Below are positions 9,855 through 49,300 of a DNA stretch of 52,137 nucleotides, in pieces. Within the stretch, counting starts at the first letter, position 1, and the number at the start of each line of letters is the position of its first letter. Source of the stretch: a virus (lineage: Duplodnaviria; Heunggongvirae; Uroviricota; Caudoviricetes); the IMG/VR virus record IMGVR_UViG_2778261534_000002. One strand, given 5' to 3'. The notes beneath the pieces are model-generated. The model saw only the letters and a list, made by a program, of their open reading frames with translations, ran no database searches and was not told the origin of the DNA. The position numbers and the translations under genes are program-made.

Positions 9855-9898
9855 GTGTTAGAAAATTAATTTGCTGTTTCTAAATCGGAATGTATGAT
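9855..9898 (+). promoter_or_regulatory. operator-like motif overlapping sigma70-like promoter of immunity module 1
   Basis: GTGTTAGAAAATTAA (9855-9869) followed by -35 TTGCTG (9871-9876), 16-nt spacer, -10 TATGAT (9893-9898). Confidence 0.45.
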
Positions 9899-10084
9899 CT
9901 GCATCATCGACTGAAGTCATCCATTGCTGAAATTTTTAGTTGATCTTCCATGTTTTCAGGCTTATATTCATGCCGTCGTAGCAAATTCTGCGACCGGGTT
10001 TGACAGCCTGAATACTTACGCGGACAACCGCACATTTCCGATATTGCGGTATTTTTGTGTCCGTAAAACCACGTTACGCCCGAA

Positions 10085-10180
10085 TTATGGTGGGGCGTGA
10101 TGGGGAGGCTTCGGCCTGCTGGTTTCGTAAGTGCCAGTCTGTCAACCCTGTCACGTCCTGCCACCTGTTTGACAGCGGGT
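10085..10180 (+). ncRNA. c4-like antisense RNA candidate
   Basis: structured leader upstream of icd-like gene; TCGTAAGT (10125-10132) is complementary to ACTTACGA at the icd RBS (10197-10204); GGC-ttcg-GCC tetraloop hairpin; boundaries approximate. Confidence 0.3.
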
Positions 10181-20822: not shown

Positions 20823-22046
20823 GTGACGGGAACAGCAATGAGTCAACACACTGATACTTCTAATCTGGAAATTATCTCGACAGCAATTGAAACGCTGCGC
20901 ACACAAATCGCTCTTATACAGAAACGGAATCCGGGTGATGACCTGTCAAAGCGACTGCACGAGAGTGTCATTGCCACTACAGATAACCTGGTGGCGGAAA
21001 TCAACAAGCTGCTTGATGATGGGGCAGTTGATTACAATAAGCTGGTGGATCAGTTTGAGGAATACCAACAAGCCGTTAATGATGGCTTGATCCGTTTTTC
21101 ACAAGTCACAGGCGTATCAGCGACAGTTGAAAGCCTGGGTGATGCAGTTAATCAATTTGCCGCGAATATGCGTAATGAGATCGGCAATCTGGAAGCGCGT
21201 CTTGAACAGGCAAATACACTGCGTAAATCTGCCGAAGCCGATTTGAACCGTTACAAAAAAGACTATCCGCCCAGCCTGACAAAGCGGCTGGATGTTGCGG
21301 AGAAGGATAACCGCGCGCTGAAAAGAGAGCGCCGGGAACTAAAAGAGCGTTTAACCAAGCTCAATCAGCAATGCATTGATTATCAAGGCGAAGGCGTCAC
21401 ACTGCGTAAAAAGTTGGCTACAGCGCAGAGCATTATCGAAACATTAAAGCGAGAGTGCTCACAGCTTGGTCACGATCTGAACCGTGCTTGTGGCATGGGA
21501 CAAAGACCAGAGACATTTCCACTCATGTATGATGGAAGGGATGCCATTGCCTACATCCATGAGTATCCGCACGGCCTGGTTGCGGAAACAGGGCAGCGTG
21601 GCGAAGCACTGTTGACGGCTAATTACCATCAACAAATCAGAACCAATCGCCTGTTAACGATGGATGTGATCCCATCGGTATGGGGAACGCCGCTTTACTA
21701 TCGCCTGCCGGGCTTCGAAAAGGACTGGAATACCGACATAGACGAATGTCTCGCAGATAAAATTATGGCGTACCTGGAGACGGATTTTCCGCGCTTATAT
21801 CGCCGGATTATGGACTCTAAGGATGCGCCAATCGATGAATTAAAAATGCGTCCGGAGACGCTGGAGGCAATCAAGCAGACGGAGTTTGATACTGTATTCA
21901 GTGTGGCCTGCATTCCAAGCTGTTTCCATGAAAGCATCCCGTTCATGCAAGGAGATCGTCGTCAGGAAATCATTGACGCTTGCCGGGTATGGGCGAACGA
22001 ATGGGATAAGAAGAATGGGGGTGTAGAAGATCTTTATGGGAAATAA
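20823..22046 (+). CDS. hypothetical protein, N-terminal coiled coil
   Basis: 407-aa ORF (probable start ATG 20838); coiled-coil N-half, Cys/His-containing C-half; no recognizable catalytic motif. Confidence 0.5.
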   Translation: MTGTAMSQHTDTSNLEIISTAIETLRTQIALIQKRNPGDDLSKRLHESVIATTDNLVAEINKLLDDGAVDYNKLVDQFEEYQQAVNDGLIRFSQVTGVSATVESLGDAVNQFAANMRNEIGNLEARLEQANTLRKSAEADLNRYKKDYPPSLTKRLDVAEKDNRALKRERRELKERLTKLNQQCIDYQGEGVTLRKKLATAQSIIETLKRECSQLGHDLNRACGMGQRPETFPLMYDGRDAIAYIHEYPHGLVAETGQRGEALLTANYHQQIRTNRLLTMDVIPSVWGTPLYYRLPGFEKDWNTDIDECLADKIMAYLETDFPRLYRRIMDSKDAPIDELKMRPETLEAIKQTEFDTVFSVACIPSCFHESIPFMQGDRRQEIIDACRVWANEWDKKNGGVEDLYGK

Positions 22047-22047
22047 T

Positions 22048-22062
22048 GTGTTAGAAATCTAA
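22048..22062. promoter_or_regulatory. operator-like 15-bp motif
   Basis: GTGTTAGAAATCTAA. Confidence 0.35.
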
Positions 22063-22203
22063 AATCACAATTCGAATGTATTGATTGTGGAGATAACTTA
22101 ACATAGAATTTTCCTTGCTGGTGGGCAGTACCCACGTTTCGCTTGCTGGGCTTGATAGTCACTTATTGGTTATTGTTCGCCCACCAGCATTTAACAAATT
22201 AAA

Positions 22204-22218
22204 GTGTTAGAAAAGGAT
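22204..22218. promoter_or_regulatory. operator-like 15-bp motif
   Basis: GTGTTAGAAAAGGAT. Confidence 0.35.
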
Positions 22219-22699
22219 GGTAATGCAAGAGCACGCTTTGGCACCGTGCAGGCCAAAGTTCAGCAGGTTTAGTGCGGAAAGTGGTTTCAGAGAGAGCACT
22301 TTGCGGAGTAAACGACAATACATGTTGAGCCACGGAAGGTCTTTTTAAGGTGTTCATTGATGATGGTCCGGCAGAGAGTAACGGTACATGCTGCATCTAA
22401 TCATCAATGCACATCTTCAACATTAAGGAGGCATAGGGATTTTTGTGGCGGTTACCTTTTGCCCTGAGTCTCCTTAATGTTGCGGTAATGCACCTATGCG
22501 GATGTGGCCTTGCATTGTGTCTTGAAAGAATGGGGTAAGGCCGGGGATATCCCCAGGGGGAGGCACCCCCGCTGCAACGAACAGCCACAGACGGCAGTCG
22601 AGTGATGGAAACGTGTAAAGACTTTAAACCTCGTTACGGCTGGCGTGGCAAACGCGACAACCGAGACAGAGCGGTGACGGGCGGAGAGAGTGCCGCATC

Positions 22700-22820
22700 A
22701 AGAAAGAAGCCGACTTGTGATCCCTTTCTGCGGGCATTTGAAAGTGAATCCAGCTCAGGCAGTCGGCTTCTTTCTTGTGTGAGATGTAGCGTATTTGCCC
22801 ATCTTCGGGTGGGCTTTTTT
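22700..22820 (+). ncRNA. candidate structured small RNA
   Basis: perfect 16-bp inverted repeat AAGAAAGAAGCCGACT (22700-22715) / AGTCGGCTTCTTTCTT (22761-22776) around a 45-nt loop, then hairpin GCCCA-N8-TGGGC plus TTTTTT (22797-22820). Confidence 0.3.
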
Positions 22821-23280
22821 AGGGTTTTCGTCATGGTTAGCGACTTTGCGGCGGTTTAGAAACCGACCATTAAAGTAAATGCAAACGATGATCTGATGAT
22901 GGTAGCGGCCTAAGAAGCCAGACGCCACGGGGTATGAGTCGTCCCCCGTCAAAAAATCGACCGCAGAGTGTCCCCGTCTGTGTATTAGGGAACGGGGAGG
23001 CATAACAGGCAAGGGCGCTGGTGTGATTAACCAGATGAATGAGAAGGGTCAGGTCTTTCTGGTCAGCGCCCTTACCTGTTACGTCCCTCCCGCGTAACAG
23101 CCATTGATTAATGGCTTTCTGGGATAACATCCTACTACGGGTATATCCCGTCATGCTGAAGGCGCTAATCACGCTGGAAGCCAGGGTTGTGCATCCCCTG
23201 TTACCGAATTGCAGCCAGGGCGCGGTGCGCCGAAAAGCATACGGAGGTGGAAGCCCTCGCCGGAGACGTACCCGGCAAGT

Positions 23281-23357
23281 GATGGTGTAGCTCAGTAGGA
23301 TAGAGCAGCAGCCTTCTAAGCTGTCGGTCGGTGGTTCGAATCCACCCACCATCGCCA
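23281..23357 (+). tRNA. tRNA-Arg (anticodon UCU)
   Basis: 77 nt; 7-bp acceptor stem GATGGTG/CACCATC, anticodon loop CTTCTAA, T-loop GGTTCGAATCC, 3' CCA. Confidence 0.9.
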
Positions 23358-23362
23358 ATTTA

Positions 23363-23449
23363 GGGGAGTTAGTCCGTAGGGGTAGCGGGGTAGACTGTAA
23401 ATCTACTGTCATTGCGACTCGGGTGGTTCGACTCCATCACTCCCCACCA
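23363..23449 (+). tRNA. tRNA-Tyr (anticodon GUA), long variable arm
   Basis: 87 nt; acceptor GGGGAGT/ACTCCCC, anticodon arm GTAGA-CTGTAAA-TCTAC, variable-arm stem GTC/GAC, 3' CCA; D-arm atypical. Confidence 0.7.
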
Positions 23450-23453
23450 AATT

Positions 23454-23529
23454 GCCGGTTTAGCTCAGTTGGTAGAGCGCCTGCCTTGTAAGCAGGATGT
23501 CAGCGGTTCGAGTCCGTTAACCGGCACCA
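23454..23529 (+). tRNA. tRNA-Thr (anticodon UGU)
   Basis: 76 nt; TAGCTCAGTTGGTAGAGC D-arm, anticodon loop CTTGTAA, T-loop GGTTCGAGTCC, 3' CCA. Confidence 0.9.
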
Positions 23530-23580
23530 ACACAACAGGTAAGGGCATTCTCCCTTATGGGGCTTGGCTTAAATGCATCG

Positions 23581-23609
23581 AGTGCTCTTACCGTTGTGAT
23601 GAAGTGCAG
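23581..23609. repeat. 30-nt spacer repeat, copy 1
   Basis: AGTGCTCTTACCGTTGTGATGAAGTGCAG; related copies at 23811 and 24112. Confidence 0.5.
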
Positions 23610-23724
23610 CTCTTTGAAGCAACCAGAAGATAAGCATCTGGCTTCACAACATAAACCGCAGGAACGACCAATAAACGGTAGTCCGTATGGAGAACACCCC
23701 GTTGAGGAAGAGGCCTGGCCGGAA

Positions 23725-23741
23725 CCGTAACCGGCACCACA
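23725..23741. repeat. duplicated tRNA-Thr 3' end fragment
   Basis: CCGTAACCGGCACCAC repeats the 3' end of tRNA-Thr (CCGTTAACCGGCACCA, 23514-23529) about 210 nt downstream. Confidence 0.45.
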
Positions 23742-23810
23742 ACGTTGAGAACACTGGCGTAACGGGGTCATATCCCAATCTATGAATAAATGTTGCGTTG
23801 CAGCGTGACA

Positions 23811-23844
23811 ACCAGTGTTCTCAACATTGTGGTGAATGCACAGG
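23811..23844. repeat. 30-nt spacer repeat, copy 2
   Basis: CCAGTGTTCTCAACATTGTGGTGAATGCACAGG; its first 16 nt are also the reverse complement of AACGTTGAGAACACTGG at 23741-23757 (large stem-loop). Confidence 0.45.
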
Positions 23845-23931
23845 CTGATGTGCCGCAACTACAGTAGTGCGCGCTTTGCGGGGCTTGCTACAACCCTGTG
23901 TCGGAGTTCAGCACCGACCATCACAATCACT

Positions 23932-24018
23932 GGAGAGTAGGGAGCATGGTGCTCAAGCGGTCTTGAAAACCGTCCCATTGCGCAAGCGATGATGGTTCGA
24001 TTCCATTACTCTCCGCCA
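23932..24018 (+). tRNA. tRNA-Ser (anticodon UGA), long variable arm
   Basis: 87 nt; acceptor GGAGAGT/ACTCTCC, anticodon loop CTTGAAA, T-loop GGTTCGATTCC, 3' CCA. Confidence 0.85.
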
Positions 24019-24111: not shown

Positions 24112-24142
24112 CAAGTGCTCTTACCATTGCGGTGAATGCGGC
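24112..24142. repeat. 30-nt spacer repeat, copy 3
   Basis: CAAGTGCTCTTACCATTGCGGTGAATGCGGC. Confidence 0.5.
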
Positions 24143-24281
24143 TAAGCGCACGCGGAACAGTTAAAACAATCCTCCTTAGTGGTTAAGTCAAACATCCCGG
24201 CGTTAATTGTTAACTGGTTAACGTCACCTGGAGGCACCAGGCACCGCAGCTTTTTTATTCGGTAAATAATGGAGTGAGAGG

Positions 24282-24518
24282 ATGCAGAACAATCCGAACA
24301 AATGTCGAACGCTATGGGTGCGGTTATATATTTATGTCGTCCTCTGTTTGATTGTGTCACTGGTTCTGTATGTTTGGCTTTTGCCAAATATGATCTCATC
24401 TGACAGCACAATACTTGTATTGTTGGGAGTCCTTCTCGCGCTCATTTACCCGGCTTTTGCAGTAGTCTTTTTTCGTGAAAAAACCAGGAAATTGATTAAT
24501 GAAAAAAACGTTGATTAG
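24282..24518 (+). CDS. small integral membrane protein
   Basis: 78 aa, two hydrophobic helices, SD GGAGTGAGAGG before ATG; overlaps start of the SPFH lipoprotein gene. Confidence 0.45.
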   Translation: MQNNPNKCRTLWVRLYIYVVLCLIVSLVLYVWLLPNMISSDSTILVLLGVLLALIYPAFAVVFFREKTRKLINEKNVD

Positions 24519-25326
24519 TGCAGCGATTATTTTTGGTTCTTTATGTCTGACCGGATGCGATCGGGTAGAGCCAGGTAACGTAGGGATCAAAGTAAATAAG
24601 CTGGGGGATGATAAAGGTATCGGTGAAGTAGTTGGCGTTGGTCGCTACTGGACAGGCTTGAATACTGAAGTTTATATCTTCCCGACCTTTAAGCAAATGA
24701 AGACATACGATGAGCCGTTCAGCTTCCAGATGAGCGACGGAACAACCATTGGTTACCACATCGGCGTAGCCTACAAGGTTGATCCAGCAAAAGTCACAAC
24801 GGTATTTCAGACCTATCGCAAAGGTGTAGATGATATTACTGATACCGATCTACGCCAGAAGGTTGCAGATGCTCTGAACCGGTTAGCCAGCAAAATGACC
24901 ACCGACAAATTTATCGACGGTGGCAAATCTGAATTGCTTGATGCAGCCCTTAAAGACATTCAGGAAGAAATGACGCCCATCGGTATTCAGGTAATGAGCC
25001 TCTCATATGTGGGCAAGCCGGAGTACCCGCCAACCGTTATCGACAGCATTAATGCCAAAGTCACGGCGAACCAGAAAACTCTGCAACGCGAGCAGGAAGT
25101 CAAGCAACGCGAAGCAGAAGCCAACATGCTGCGCGCAGAAGCTGCTGGACAGGCCGATGCCATTCGCACAAAAGCCCAGGCTGAAGCTGATGCCATTCGT
25201 TTACGCGGTGAGGCTCTGCGCCAGAACCCCGGCGTTATGGAGTTGGAAGCGATCAACAAATGGAACGGAACGCTACCGCAGTATATGACCAGTAATACCG
25301 CTGTTCCGTTTGTTCCGGTGAAATAA
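24499..25326 (+). CDS. SPFH/band-7 (prohibitin-like) lipoprotein
   Basis: 275 aa; signal peptide with lipobox LTGC; SPFH-like core followed by Ala/Glu-rich coiled-coil tail. Confidence 0.65.
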   Translation: MKKTLISAAIIFGSLCLTGCDRVEPGNVGIKVNKLGDDKGIGEVVGVGRYWTGLNTEVYIFPTFKQMKTYDEPFSFQMSDGTTIGYHIGVAYKVDPAKVTTVFQTYRKGVDDITDTDLRQKVADALNRLASKMTTDKFIDGGKSELLDAALKDIQEEMTPIGIQVMSLSYVGKPEYPPTVIDSINAKVTANQKTLQREQEVKQREAEANMLRAEAAGQADAIRTKAQAEADAIRLRGEALRQNPGVMELEAINKWNGTLPQYMTSNTAVPFVPVK

Positions 25327-26010: not shown

Positions 26011-26586
26011 ATGTTAATGGCGAACGATAACGCATATGCAGAAGAAGATCTCATTTTGAGTGACTTCATAGGGAAGCGGGAACGCTGGACCCAAAAGCGA
26101 GAGGAACTTTACGCCTCATTAGTTCGCAAAGGCGTCAATATCGAAACCGCACAGAGCGGCGATATGACAGTGGTAAGCGTTGGATTGCACGGTGTAAGCG
26201 TGTCAGCAATCAATCATGAGCCATACGTTGCGTTATCCGAGTCAATGGTAAGGTTAGTTAAGTTCCTGAAGTACACAGAAGCGAATAATGTAATCATTGG
26301 CAAAAAGAATATCCCTTTTTCCTCGGCTTTTTACTGGATGATGAAAGGGCTTGATGCCCGGCGGACATCATGGCCTAAAGGGAGCTATATATCGATGTTC
26401 CGTGGCAGCATTGGCAGCAAAGAAAAGCTCTTCGAATTCTTGCCGGAAGAGGCATTCGATATTGTGGAAGGGTGCGATGTGATGGTGATGCCTCGCCTGG
26501 TAATGATGAATGGGGATTTACAGGCGCAGACAGACTGGTTTGCAACTGGTGTGGATATTATCGCGACTGACTGGGAGGCTTTCTGA
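26011..26586 (+). CDS. hypothetical protein with C-terminal DUF2829-like domain
   Basis: 191 aa; C-terminal ~90 aa carry KGLDARRTSW ... IIATDWEAF signature. Confidence 0.45.
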   Translation: MLMANDNAYAEEDLILSDFIGKRERWTQKREELYASLVRKGVNIETAQSGDMTVVSVGLHGVSVSAINHEPYVALSESMVRLVKFLKYTEANNVIIGKKNIPFSSAFYWMMKGLDARRTSWPKGSYISMFRGSIGSKEKLFEFLPEEAFDIVEGCDVMVMPRLVMMNGDLQAQTDWFATGVDIIATDWEAF

Positions 26587-27086: not shown

Positions 27087-27479
27087 ATGGAACAAATCAG
27101 CAGCGCAGAAATTGCGGATATCATGATCAGGGCTGACTGCTATCTGACAGTCACTGAAATTACCACTCTCGCCAAAGAAAAATACCCTCATCTCCATGTT
27201 TCACGAGTAAGTGTAACTAACATCATTCGTCATTTTGTTCGTTCAAGCAGGGCAATCTGTGAGCTGGATGATCGTGTGTATCCACGAAAATACTGGCTAC
27301 ATGGTCTGAACGGATATCAGTTCAAGGTGCGCGGGCGCACGCCTGAATACGGTAGCTTACTGGTTAAAAACTGTAGCAGGAAATCAGTCGAACAGGCGCG
27401 AAAAGAGCAACGAGAGCTGGTGGACATGGCGAATAAGCTGTGGAATGCCGCCGTTAAAAAGCGTGGTGTTGCTTTATGA
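27087..27479 (+). CDS. Lpa-like late promoter activator (tentative)
   Basis: 130 aa immediately upstream of pacA and overlapping its start, the position of lpa (gene 10) in P1; no motif-level support. Confidence 0.3.
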   Translation: MEQISSAEIADIMIRADCYLTVTEITTLAKEKYPHLHVSRVSVTNIIRHFVRSSRAICELDDRVYPRKYWLHGLNGYQFKVRGRTPEYGSLLVKNCSRKSVEQARKEQRELVDMANKLWNAAVKKRGVAL

Positions 27480-28840
27480 GTCTGGTTAATTGGGAGGAGC
27501 ACCGCGCCCGCTTTATAGCGTTGCGTGAAGAAAAAGGGATCACTGTAAAGGAATACTGTGAGGAGCATGGCCTTAGCTTCAATACAGCCAGAAAGCATCT
27601 CAATATGAAAAAAAATGAGGTGCGGTCGCAGGTAAAGACAACAAAAAAAAGCACCAAATCACCTGAAAAAAAACGGGCGGGAAGAGCAACAAAAAAGCTG
27701 GAAGAGGGTGCAGAAAAAACAAAATTTACAGAAATTGACAATTCGCAGGGCGCAGGTTCTTTCCGAAGTATGCCGAGAAAGAAAACTTCGGATCATGAAA
27801 ATAATGCAAATAATAACAATGAGATAAAAGAATCTGTCAGGAGATCATTGCGCGAAAAAATGGCGAAAATGATCCCCGAAGAAGATAAAAGCGCCCCAAA
27901 AATTGAGGGATCTTCTGCAATGATCCCTGACGGTGCTGTGCAGCGTGCCACATTGCCCACTACGAATGTGGCTCGCGATATGATGAAGAACGGCGCAGAA
28001 GAACACCTGCGGTTAGCAATTCAAATGGCGCAAGAGCGCGCACTTCAGTATCAAAGCATTGTTGATCAGGAGGCCGAACGTCTACAGGCGGAAATAGACG
28101 CCTTGGGCGATAAAGAGCCAGAAGGAATGCACCCTGGGCAGCGCCTTCTCGGTCTAATCAGTGACGCGGCCTACTACATGAATGATTTTATCAGTAGGTT
28201 GGCAGCTATATATCAGTCCGAACAAAAGCTGCGACAGGGGGATGAAAAGCTTCGTCAGAGCGCTCGCCAGCAAGCATTCAAAGAGGCTGAGGCCAGAGAA
28301 AAACTCGAATTAGCACGCCTACAGGCCGAACAGCGTGGCAAAGAGATTGAATATCGCATTGGCGCTGACGCACGCGCAGCCAGAGTTATCGCCGCCGCTA
28401 TACGTATGCGTGAGCGCGAGGAACTGGATGATATCGGTGTTGCTGAATACATCGAGCGCCAGGGGGTCAGCGTCCCGGCTATCCTCGCGGCGCGCGCGGC
28501 GAAAGCTATCACTCTTCTCGAACCACCTGTTTCTGACGTCAATGATGTTGATGATGAACAGCTGGACAAAGAGGCAAGGGAGTTTGCAACGCTTCAGGCT
28601 AACCATCCGCAATGGCTGGCAGAGCGCCGGGCGGATGTGGCAACCATTGTTGAAGAATTGGGGTGCGGAGATTACGACCGCAATGGCGAGCGTAAAGCTG
28701 GAGAATTCGAGGCCAACGACGAAGAGCTGGATATTGACCCTTCGGCAACGGCTGAAATTTACGGTGATTATGATGTATCTGATGCAGGGTATGACGCCGG
28801 AGATGATGATATCGCGATAGAACCGCCGGAGGATGATTAA
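27476..28840 (+). CDS. pacA: terminase small subunit PacA
   Basis: 454 aa; N-terminal HTH-like region, Lys-rich linker, acidic C-terminus; directly precedes and overlaps large terminase gene; contains GATC-rich candidate pac site. Confidence 0.7.
   Translation: MSLVNWEEHRARFIALREEKGITVKEYCEEHGLSFNTARKHLNMKKNEVRSQVKTTKKSTKSPEKKRAGRATKKLEEGAEKTKFTEIDNSQGAGSFRSMPRKKTSDHENNANNNNEIKESVRRSLREKMAKMIPEEDKSAPKIEGSSAMIPDGAVQRATLPTTNVARDMMKNGAEEHLRLAIQMAQERALQYQSIVDQEAERLQAEIDALGDKEPEGMHPGQRLLGLISDAAYYMNDFISRLAAIYQSEQKLRQGDEKLRQSARQQAFKEAEAREKLELARLQAEQRGKEIEYRIGADARAARVIAAAIRMREREELDDIGVAEYIERQGVSVPAILAARAAKAITLLEPPVSDVNDVDDEQLDKEAREFATLQANHPQWLAERRADVATIVEELGCGDYDRNGERKAGEFEANDEELDIDPSATAEIYGDYDVSDAGYDAGDDDIAIEPPEDD
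27790..27926. other. candidate pac site (cluster of Dam GATC hexamers)
   Basis: five GATC-containing hexamers (GGATCA, AGATCA, TGATCC, GGATCT, TGATCC) within about 135 bp in the 5' part of pacA; P1 pac is a cluster of TGATC(A/G) hexamers inside pacA. Confidence 0.4.
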
Positions 28841-49025: not shown

Positions 49026-49131
49026 AAATACAGACTGTTGCGCCCTGGCATTATCGTGGGGTATATTTCTACGGCACCTTAGAAAAACGGGTGCCGGGAT
49101 TGGAACCCCGGATAATGTCAAAGGCGACACA

Positions 49132-49153
49132 GACGCCGAAAGCGTCTTTTTTT
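49132..49153 (+). terminator. rho-independent terminator
   Basis: GACGC-cgaaa-GCGTC followed by TTTTTTT. Confidence 0.65.
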
Positions 49154-49169
49154 GTGTCATGCCATCGCA

Positions 49170-49300
49170 CAGCCATACGTAGCGTTTAGCTCAGAGATCA
49201 ATGGTAGTGCTGGCTGGGCTGCCGAAAGGCAGGCCGGTTCCCTTTGACGCCGGTAGTTCCAACCCAGTCAGTGCTACCGCCATTGAGATTGGAACCTCAC
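49170..49300 (+). ncRNA. c4-like antisense RNA candidate (module 2)
   Basis: structured leader upstream of second icd-like gene; CCTTTGAC (49232-49239) is complementary to GTCAAAGG at the icd RBS (49311-49318); CTGCC-gaaa-GGCAG hairpin; boundaries approximate. Confidence 0.3.

Follow-up and report, generated by a model that had tools for sequence, protein, structure and literature searches.

A conserved hairpin and an intrinsic terminator in the early leader of a phage D6-like plasmid prophage: a candidate attenuator and processing site at the place of DicF

Whether a stem-loop and a GC-rich hairpin standing side by side ahead of a phage transfer RNA (tRNA) array mark a gene for a small RNA (sRNA) or belong to a longer regulatory transcript is the question posed by positions 22699-22820 of the IMG/VR virus record IMGVR_UViG_2778261534_000002, a Caudoviricetes sequence of 52,137 nucleotides (nt) that is called the window throughout, at its full length. 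A preliminary description of this DNA had proposed a small-RNA gene. The reading favoured here, held with about even confidence, is that the pair acts as a partial terminator (an attenuator) together with a processing or stability hairpin in a repressor-controlled early leader, at the slot that DicF takes in a dicBF-like scaffold. Across 22000-23300 the window is 98.3% identical to Escherichia phage D6, a P1-related plasmid prophage, and it is itself a phage D6-like plasmid prophage of the P1 family; the part of it that can be aligned with P1 at the nucleotide level amounts to 17.7%, or to 5% at an identity of at least 90%. In D6 the corresponding stretch lies, unannotated, between a pmgS-like gene and the tRNA genes. 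Relatives were pooled from PLSDB plasmids, IMG/VR viral contigs and a metagenome scan, and are grouped below as lineage A (the window and D6), lineage B (for example the locus L003 and E. marmotae) and lineage C (S. dysenteriae and E. fergusonii). In PLSDB, 121 plasmids match 22047-22830, non-mobilizable with two exceptions, and each one examined is D6-like; the metagenome scan for further lineages of the stem-loop returned the three known types, chance matches and nothing more.

The larger of the two structures is a three-tier hairpin at 22699-22777, identified by inverted repeat, folding and covariation and placed on the + strand from its context. Its base is an inverted repeat of 17 nt with fully complementary arms (22699-22715 and 22761-22777; 100%) spaced 45 nt apart. 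The perfect stem first reported is thus real and one position longer than the 16 base pairs (bp) given for it, and the 45 nt between the arms, correctly measured, are not an open loop: they hold a middle stem of 3-4 bp (22719-22721 with 22748-22750), an apical stem of 5 bp (22724-22728 with 22740-22744) and an 11-nt apical loop, UGCGGGCAUUU, at 22729-22739. The fold is worth -33.3 kcal/mol (z = -4.19, with none of 200 dinucleotide shuffles as good) and is equally good on the + and - strands; the whole 136-nt stretch that takes in both structures gives z = -3.55. Perfect inverted 16-mers with a loop of at most 200 nt are found twice in the window, as overlapping matches that both represent this repeat, and not once in 20 shuffles. 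Further, the stem-loop and its immediate surroundings, 91 nt in all, were recovered from the three lineages as 12 distinct variants that are free of insertions and deletions. When pairs are counted over these 12 variants on a model of 17 basal, 4 middle and 5 apical bp with an 11-nt loop, 26 stacked pairs in one hairpin, 97.8% of the cells are paired and seven pair changes are two-sided, values reached by none of 500 shuffles, and controls in which the model was slid along the sequence reach at most 51%. By these figures the hairpin is, on comparative grounds, selected as a structure. Within the apical loop a GGG-centred core is nearly conserved, G40-G42 being invariant and G38 and C39 conserved at 90% or more. 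Modelled in this way, the hairpin is a plausible candidate for an RNase III processing element or a stability element.

The smaller structure begins 19 nt past the stem-loop, one fewer than the 20 originally counted, and otherwise fits the GC hairpin and T6 first described. It comprises GCCCATCTTCGGGTGGGC at 22797-22814, with seven pairs of which five are G-C and a UUCG loop (GCCCATC-UUCG-GGTGGGC), followed by TTTTTT at 22815-22820. Its hairpin is worth -12.5 kcal/mol (z = -3.47; 0 of 200 dinucleotide shuffles as good) on the + strand as against -8.2 kcal/mol on the - strand, and the T-run is present on the + strand only. By these features the hairpin with its U-tract (22797-22820) is a canonical + strand intrinsic terminator. 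It is also the first element of the block shared with P1, where it forms the 3' end of a region recorded as dicF-like. In lineages B and C and in E. fergusonii its stem is kept through G-U to G-C replacements and changes in the loop, the T-run varies from T6 to T8 among relatives, and the stem and the UUU that precedes it are invariant, or keep their pairing, in P1 and in all D6 lineages. Between the two structures lies a single-stranded linker (22778-22796, + strand) that ends in a U-rich UAUUU, of which the UUU at 22794-22796 is the stretch invariant in P1 and the D6 lineages. Judged by covariation and conservation, both structures are real and under selection at the structural level.

What these structures belong to is indicated by the DNA on either side of them. 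The 1.2 kb upstream of the tRNA array had been called non-coding, and the non-coding stretch indeed spans 22047-23280, with the first tRNA starting at 23281. The only promoter-like site in 21900-23400 is a + strand sigma-70-like promoter at 22081-22109 (TTGATT-17-TAGAAT), both hexamers of which vary little or not at all among the 27 D6-lineage leaders; the transcript is presumed to start at about 22115. Just upstream of this promoter, at 22043-22066 on the + strand, stands a motif resembling a C1 operator, O1, whose core GTGTTAGAAA (22048-22057) is invariant in the same 27 leaders, and a second such motif (22199-22216, + strand; core 22204-22213, invariant in the alignment) falls inside the transcribed leader. 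The window contains 14 copies of the GTGTTAGAAA motif where 3.35 would be expected, and none of 100 shuffles has as many as 14; the copies include those at 9855, 19757, 20799, 22048, 22204, 32843, 42923, 47869 and 48528. The contexts of the copies yield the consensus RTGTTAGAAAnnTAAwtt, which, reversed, resembles the P1 C1 operator, and at 9855 a copy precedes the c4 a1/b1 targets by 107 nt, the place that Oc4 takes in P1. This consensus is probably the operator of a D6-type C1 repressor. Two separate C4 antisense-RNA loci were also seen (9962-10168 and 49074-49284), one with a1/b1 targets upstream and the other preceded by an isrK-type RNA.

From the presumed start onward the leader is filled with predicted + strand hairpins. 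A 5'-terminal hairpin at 22115-22190, found as an inverted repeat and by RNAalifold, is closed by an 11-bp stem formed by GCUGGUGGGC and GCCCACCAGC, and the RNAalifold helix there shows one compensatory pair and two one-sided changes. A conserved series follows at 22235-22578, again from RNAalifold and inverted repeats, including hairpins at 22349-22415 and 22422-22478 and a multi-branch domain at 22479-22578 that is nearly invariant; over 14 distinct sequences RNAalifold records three compensatory pairs at 22235-22249, two at 22258-22330 and three at 22422-22478. In one IMG/VR contig, L059, the inner part of the 22422-22478 hairpin (the equivalent of 22429-22471) is inverted relative to all other relatives. 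The stem-loop and terminator are, in this predicted layout, neighbouring parts of a structured untranslated leader of about 1.17 kb that runs into the tRNA array. A search for the D6-specific 5' leader in other phages gave D6 only. Rfam at gathering thresholds reports, in the window, only tRNAs, two C4 RNAs, c4-a1b1 and isrK, all outside the element, and within the leader there is, besides a weak tmRNA_permuted match, only sub-threshold noise (STnc240, MicA and microRNA families) and no cis-regulatory family. A role as a CsrA sponge was considered and ruled out by the lack of GGA enrichment (18 observed against 24 expected). The 85-amino-acid open reading frame (ORF) at 22602-22859 on the + strand, which runs across both structures, had been described as spurious and as the only ORF in the region. 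There are in fact smaller ORFs on both strands. The 85-residue frame is, on comparison, spurious, because it is not conserved in relatives and matches no family: two lineage C loci, L005 and L145 (relatives from S. dysenteriae and E. fergusonii), lack the 120 nt at 22579-22698, lineage B carries an additional 107 nt within the frame, and neither this ORF nor three neighbouring ones, on both strands, has a Pfam or PHROG match, the frames of all four being interrupted among relatives. A - strand ORF across the terminator is broken by the differences in T-run length among relatives.

Given a stem-loop and a terminator so close together, an obvious possibility is an sRNA gene that stands alone, with its own promoter just upstream of 22699 and a trans-acting product of about 120 nt ending at the terminator. 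The order of parts at 22699-22820, a hairpin, UAUUU, a GC hairpin and U6, is the 3'-module layout of Hfq-type sRNAs and typical of Hfq-dependent ones, and the nearly conserved GGG-centred loop would suit such a molecule. Against it, no sigma-70-like promoter or promoter-like site was found between 22110 and the stem, the nearest conserved promoter being some 600 nt upstream, and a deletion in L005 and L145 removes the DNA that precedes the stem, up to its very edge. The two structures, moreover, do not travel as a unit. They are held apart by a 107-120-nt module in lineages B and C, and P1 has the module and the terminator and lacks the stem-loop, its homology with the window beginning exactly at 22794. 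Because B and C have the intervening module and P1 has the terminator without the stem-loop, the pair as it stands in the window is, by this comparison, a lineage-specific juxtaposition made by deletion. With no Rfam family match, a linker that differs between lineages and no target found in ftsZ or in the window, the discrete sRNA gene first proposed is improbable. A small RNA from this element could arise only by processing of the long leader transcript, as DicF does in the prophage Qin.

In Qin, RNase E releases DicF from a polycistronic transcript, and its 3' end is made by an intrinsic terminator or by an RNase III cut (PMC5069750). The module that intervenes in the relatives matches the segment immediately upstream of dicF in Qin, with 92% identity in L003, 82% in L005 and 78% in P1, so that the terminator following it fills the DicF slot. 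On the other side, a + strand segment at 24128-24248, placed after the tRNA-Ser gene, resembles the dicB leader downstream of dicF (local blastn against Qin, L152, 857-980: 81% over 124 nt, E = 2e-29). With dicF-flank homology on both sides, the leader-tRNA region is syntenic with the dicBF operon and built on its scaffold. When the slot is defined as following the upstream module and preceding the dicB-leader-like segment, the terminator lies in it in P1 and in lineages B and C; the window itself has the downstream segment and has lost the upstream module by deletion. The downstream segment resembles STnc100 at a level below threshold, the model scoring 34-41 bits in Qin, P1 and L003. The P1 record (NC_005856) marks 68791-68892 as a "dicF-like region", to the 3' end of which the window terminator and U-tract are homologous; what the region resembles is DNA flanking dicF, not DicF. 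In P1 the homologous spot follows P1ban/P2ban and the C1 operator Op72 at a distance of 100-200 nt, and on these correspondences the leader is what the D6 lineages have in place of the P1 Pban/Op72 leader. Since no + strand promoter is recorded for P1 between Pban and ban, expression of ban implies at least some read-through of the hairpin. Identity with DicF proper (RF00039) was tried and rejected: the model scores 76.7 bits in Qin and finds no match at E <= 10 in window positions 22000-23300, nor at E <= 1 in P1, L003 or L005. Separately, the hairpin apex TCTGCGGGCATTTGAAAGTGAAT (22728-22751) resembles the 3' end of DicF with the bases that follow it, TCTGCCGCCCTTTTTAAAGTGAAT (L152 826-853), a likeness first matched through the lineage B version in L003 (82% over 28 nt, E = 0.28) that is not syntenic and is probably due to chance.

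In the preferred reading of a partial terminator joined to a processing hairpin, lifting of the repressor would allow RNA polymerase to transcribe the leader from the 22081-22109 promoter, and some transcripts would end at 22815-22820 with a 3' portion composed of the three-tier hairpin, the U-rich linker, the terminator hairpin and a U tail. The 17-bp basal helix and the helices stacked above it would serve as an RNase III target or a 3'-protective hairpin, and might liberate or stabilise a piece of about 45-120 nt, much as DicF is freed by RNase E and RNase III. Other polymerases would read through into the conserved block and tRNAs and on to the early accessory genes. Given the Hfq-type order of elements and the 26-pair helix, a DicF-style, Hfq-type sRNA released from the leader is possible by analogy.

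Several observations weigh against this reading. The stem-loop adjoins the terminator in lineage A only, so an RNA of exactly these two parts is not conserved, and the covariation of the hairpin is based on just three independent lineages. An inverted repeat cannot tell which strand is selected, nor RNA from DNA, and the wobbles are split, a U-G pair in lineage C fitting the + strand and a C-A pair in lineage A being G-U on the - strand; because this evidence is ambiguous, the strand of the hairpin was taken from context. The linker, the would-be seed, varies in sequence, with lineages A and C set apart from B and from P1. No conserved antiterminator pairing, as a regulated attenuator would have, was found; a GGCAA/UUGCC alternative noted by eye exists in P1 and lineage B only and not in lineages A or C. 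Pairing to the start of ftsZ is no better than that of dinucleotide shuffles: shuffled sequences gave duplexes at least as good in 181 of 300 cases for the linker and terminator of the window, 276 of 300 for P1 and 297 of 300 for L003, and the longer window candidate that includes the stem-loop was equalled by 46 of 300, as compared with 17 of 300 for DicF. Complements of the apical loop are not in excess in the window either (14 found, 19.6 expected). Finally, a module exchanged recently, rather than constraint, could account for part of the high identity with P1.

An alternative is a purely cis-acting role, in which the pair tunes or limits transcription into the tRNA and early genes, or protects the leader, and no functional product is made. 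The position between a repressor-controlled promoter and the genes it serves suits, for example, the damping of leaky transcription in the lysogen, the terminator is the most conserved part and the would-be seed is variable, and neither ftsZ nor the apical-loop complements in the window offered a target. Such a role leaves unexplained the compensatory upkeep of a three-tier hairpin with a conserved apical loop and the presence of a trans-acting sRNA in the same slot of Qin, and it too lacks an identified antiterminator alternative. Taken by itself it is a tentative explanation, nearly as likely as the preferred one.

A further possibility is that the repeat acts as DNA and not as an RNA structure. 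Compensatory changes in an inverted repeat fit a DNA hairpin equally well, and a DNA palindrome acting as a cruciform, as a hot spot of recombination or deletion, or as a protein-binding site would account for homology breakpoints that fall exactly at the edges of the stem: lineage B diverges at 22777, and the left arm is where the deletion of L005 and L145 stops. The inversion in L059, inside another hairpin of the leader, could be read in the same way. Two nested interior helices are kept by compensatory change, however, which a dimeric protein site does not need; the element sits in a leader that is hairpin-rich and, in the model, transcribed, beside a strand-specific terminator; and none of the known P1 DNA sites maps here. 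A DNA-level explanation is accordingly rated as highly unlikely.

Beyond the terminator, a structured non-coding block on the + strand (22821-23280), nearly invariant between P1 and D6, reaches to the first tRNA. Counted from 22794, the shared stretch to 23280 is 94-100% identical to P1 except at 23042-23136 (60-72%), and the block is present in 561 of 5,426 complete E. coli genomes (~10%), almost always plasmid-borne; its RefSeq annotation consists of an occasional hypothetical protein and otherwise only the tRNA at the 3' end of the query. The hairpin at about 23098-23117, in the variable part, exists in four unrelated sequence versions, all of which fold, and a long hairpin (22994-23020 with 23064-23090) shows one compensatory pair, C-G to U-A. 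Near its start, on the + strand at 22881-22913, the block contains a frame resembling the tag of transfer-messenger RNA (tmRNA), ANDDLMMVAA-stop (GCA AAC GAT GAT CTG ATG ATG GTA GCG GCC TAA). It has neither start codon nor Shine-Dalgarno sequence, an in-frame TAG stands seven codons upstream (22857-22859), and in loci found without using the tag its variation is nearly limited to codon 8, valine or alanine. The Rfam tmRNA_permuted model gives 22-25 bits here (E = 0.013-0.12 in the window, P1, L003 and L005) against a gathering score of 47, and the Rfam tmRNA families as a whole give 11-25 bits on the block against gathering scores of 47-84. As for a tRNA-like domain in the block, ARAGORN calls no tmRNA at default or 90% thresholds, and its calls at 80% are mixed with obvious false ones. 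Local alignment with E. coli ssrA scores 25, the shuffles 23.5 +/- 3.0. Among GTDB representatives no bacterial ssrA carries the same tag, which was met only in P1-like contigs, and the literature searched yielded nothing on a P1 leader RNA, the P1 "dicF-like" region, phage tmRNA-like elements or the tag peptide. A tmRNA in two pieces, the acceptor piece being supplied by the "dicF-like" module, was rejected, as the CCA-ending stretch of P1 is absent in lineage B and the module is absent in the window. In three relatives (L015, L088 and L092) all that precedes CAAACTGACCATTAAAG, just ahead of the equivalent of 22860, has given way to an insertion sequence with a TnpB-like end, and the tag-like frame and the rest of the block are intact.

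These features raise the possibility that the UUCG hairpin belongs with what follows it. In one form, it would be the start of an RNA of about 460 nt, preserved with hardly any change in all P1- and D6-type phage-plasmids, that carries a relic or imitation of tmRNA's mRNA-like domain and is gated by the stem-loop and terminator, a proposal regarded as rather doubtful. In another, the UUCG hairpin would be mainly a 5' element of a downstream RNA at 22794-23280 with the tag-like frame, and the stem-loop an unrelated neighbour. For the latter speak the P1 homology, which starts exactly at 22794 and continues at 94-100%, the tag-like frame with its weak tmRNA_permuted matches 60 nt downstream, and the hairpins that the block keeps despite sequence turnover. 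Yet a 7-bp GC hairpin directly before U6-U8 is a textbook terminator, no promoter was found after the hairpin, the tRNA-like domain is absent and the ssrA alignment does not rise above shuffles, and this second form is very unlikely. The tag-like frame is best left as an unexplained observation on which the evidence is mixed.

The + strand tRNA array at 23281-24018, called by ARAGORN and Rfam, encodes Arg-TCT, Tyr, Thr and Ser-TGA (23932-24018). Its first gene is Arg(TCT) in the window (23281-23357) and in L003 and Asn(GTT) in P1, the D6 record and L005; with the acceptor stem the same in relatives (L001 1994-2069; L005 3016-3090), it looks as though close relatives have exchanged the anticodon arm. 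The sequence CCGGAACCGTAACCGGCACCA (23715-23745) resembles a remnant of the tRNA-Thr gene (23454-23529), namely its 3' end, which hints that the array has gained and lost tRNA genes in the past. Downstream of the tRNAs are an SPFH/Band_7 protein (24499-25326) and an ORF with a Tad2-like (anti-Thoeris) domain (26011-26586), and a 454-amino-acid ORF at 27476-28840 has no Pfam match. On the reverse strand of one P1-like contig, L122, the last ~67 nt of the leader (equivalent to 23210-23276) come directly after P1-type C1 operators and precede a protein gene rather than a tRNA, an arrangement that shows the leader to be modular.

In light of how common P1-family phage-plasmids are in E. coli, Salmonella and Shigella, where they carry resistance and anti-defence genes, it is of some consequence that a long untranslated leader, which annotation pipelines leave undescribed, precedes their tRNA and early accessory genes. 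The present analysis presents that leader as a chain of conserved RNA structures on a dicBF scaffold, with a conserved terminator at the place of DicF, and thereby as a concrete place in which a phage regulatory RNA, or the means by which expression of phage tRNAs is controlled, can be sought. The P1 record already covers the terminator with an uncharacterised note. The records and literature searched appear to contain no description of the D6-lineage hairpin, of the structured leader or of what exactly the "dicF-like" similarity consists in. The practical value of the finding is modest as long as neither a trans-acting product nor a function of the tag-like block is demonstrated. The real surprise could lie in that neighbouring block, the RNA of which, if functional, would allow the phage to tap into, or subvert, the rescue of ribosomes or the tagging of proteins for degradation.

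How the element compares with known systems depends on which of its parts is considered. The Hfq-binding 3' module of enterobacterial sRNAs reportedly consists of one or more hairpins, an internal U-rich stretch, a terminator hairpin and poly(U). The window shares that order, whereas a promoter of its own, a conserved seed and a target were not found. Hairpins processed by RNase III are a feature of phage early transcripts, as in the R sites of T7 and the N-leader and sib sites of lambda, and the three-tier hairpin is similarly a long, near-perfect helix with internal loops, placed in an untranslated part of an early polycistronic transcript, although its perfect basal helix of 17 bp falls short of two full turns. 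With tmRNA the block shares a ten-codon, start-less frame running from GCA (Ala-Asn-Asp) to Ala-Ala-stop, the placement of that frame after a hairpin and an A-rich linker with its stop in the loop of a small hairpin, the hairpins and possible pseudoknots that follow, a weak tmRNA_permuted match and tRNA genes nearby, but not an acceptor stem, T-arm or CCA. The "dicF-like region" of P1, itself an uncharacterised similarity note in the record, is likewise downstream of a C1-controlled early promoter and upstream of tRNA genes; P1 lacks the 17-bp stem-loop and the D6-specific 5' leader of ~650 nt, and the window lacks the first two thirds of the P1 region. Finally, the dicBF operon of Qin differs in that a different RNA occupies the slot, in that the window is without the upstream module and in that the slot here continues into a block of ~460 nt and tRNA genes. 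It shares the operon slot with these leaders, the upstream module (78-92%) with P1 and lineages B and C, and the downstream segment with the window, and DicF, too, ends in an intrinsic terminator and is excised from a long transcript (PMC5069750).

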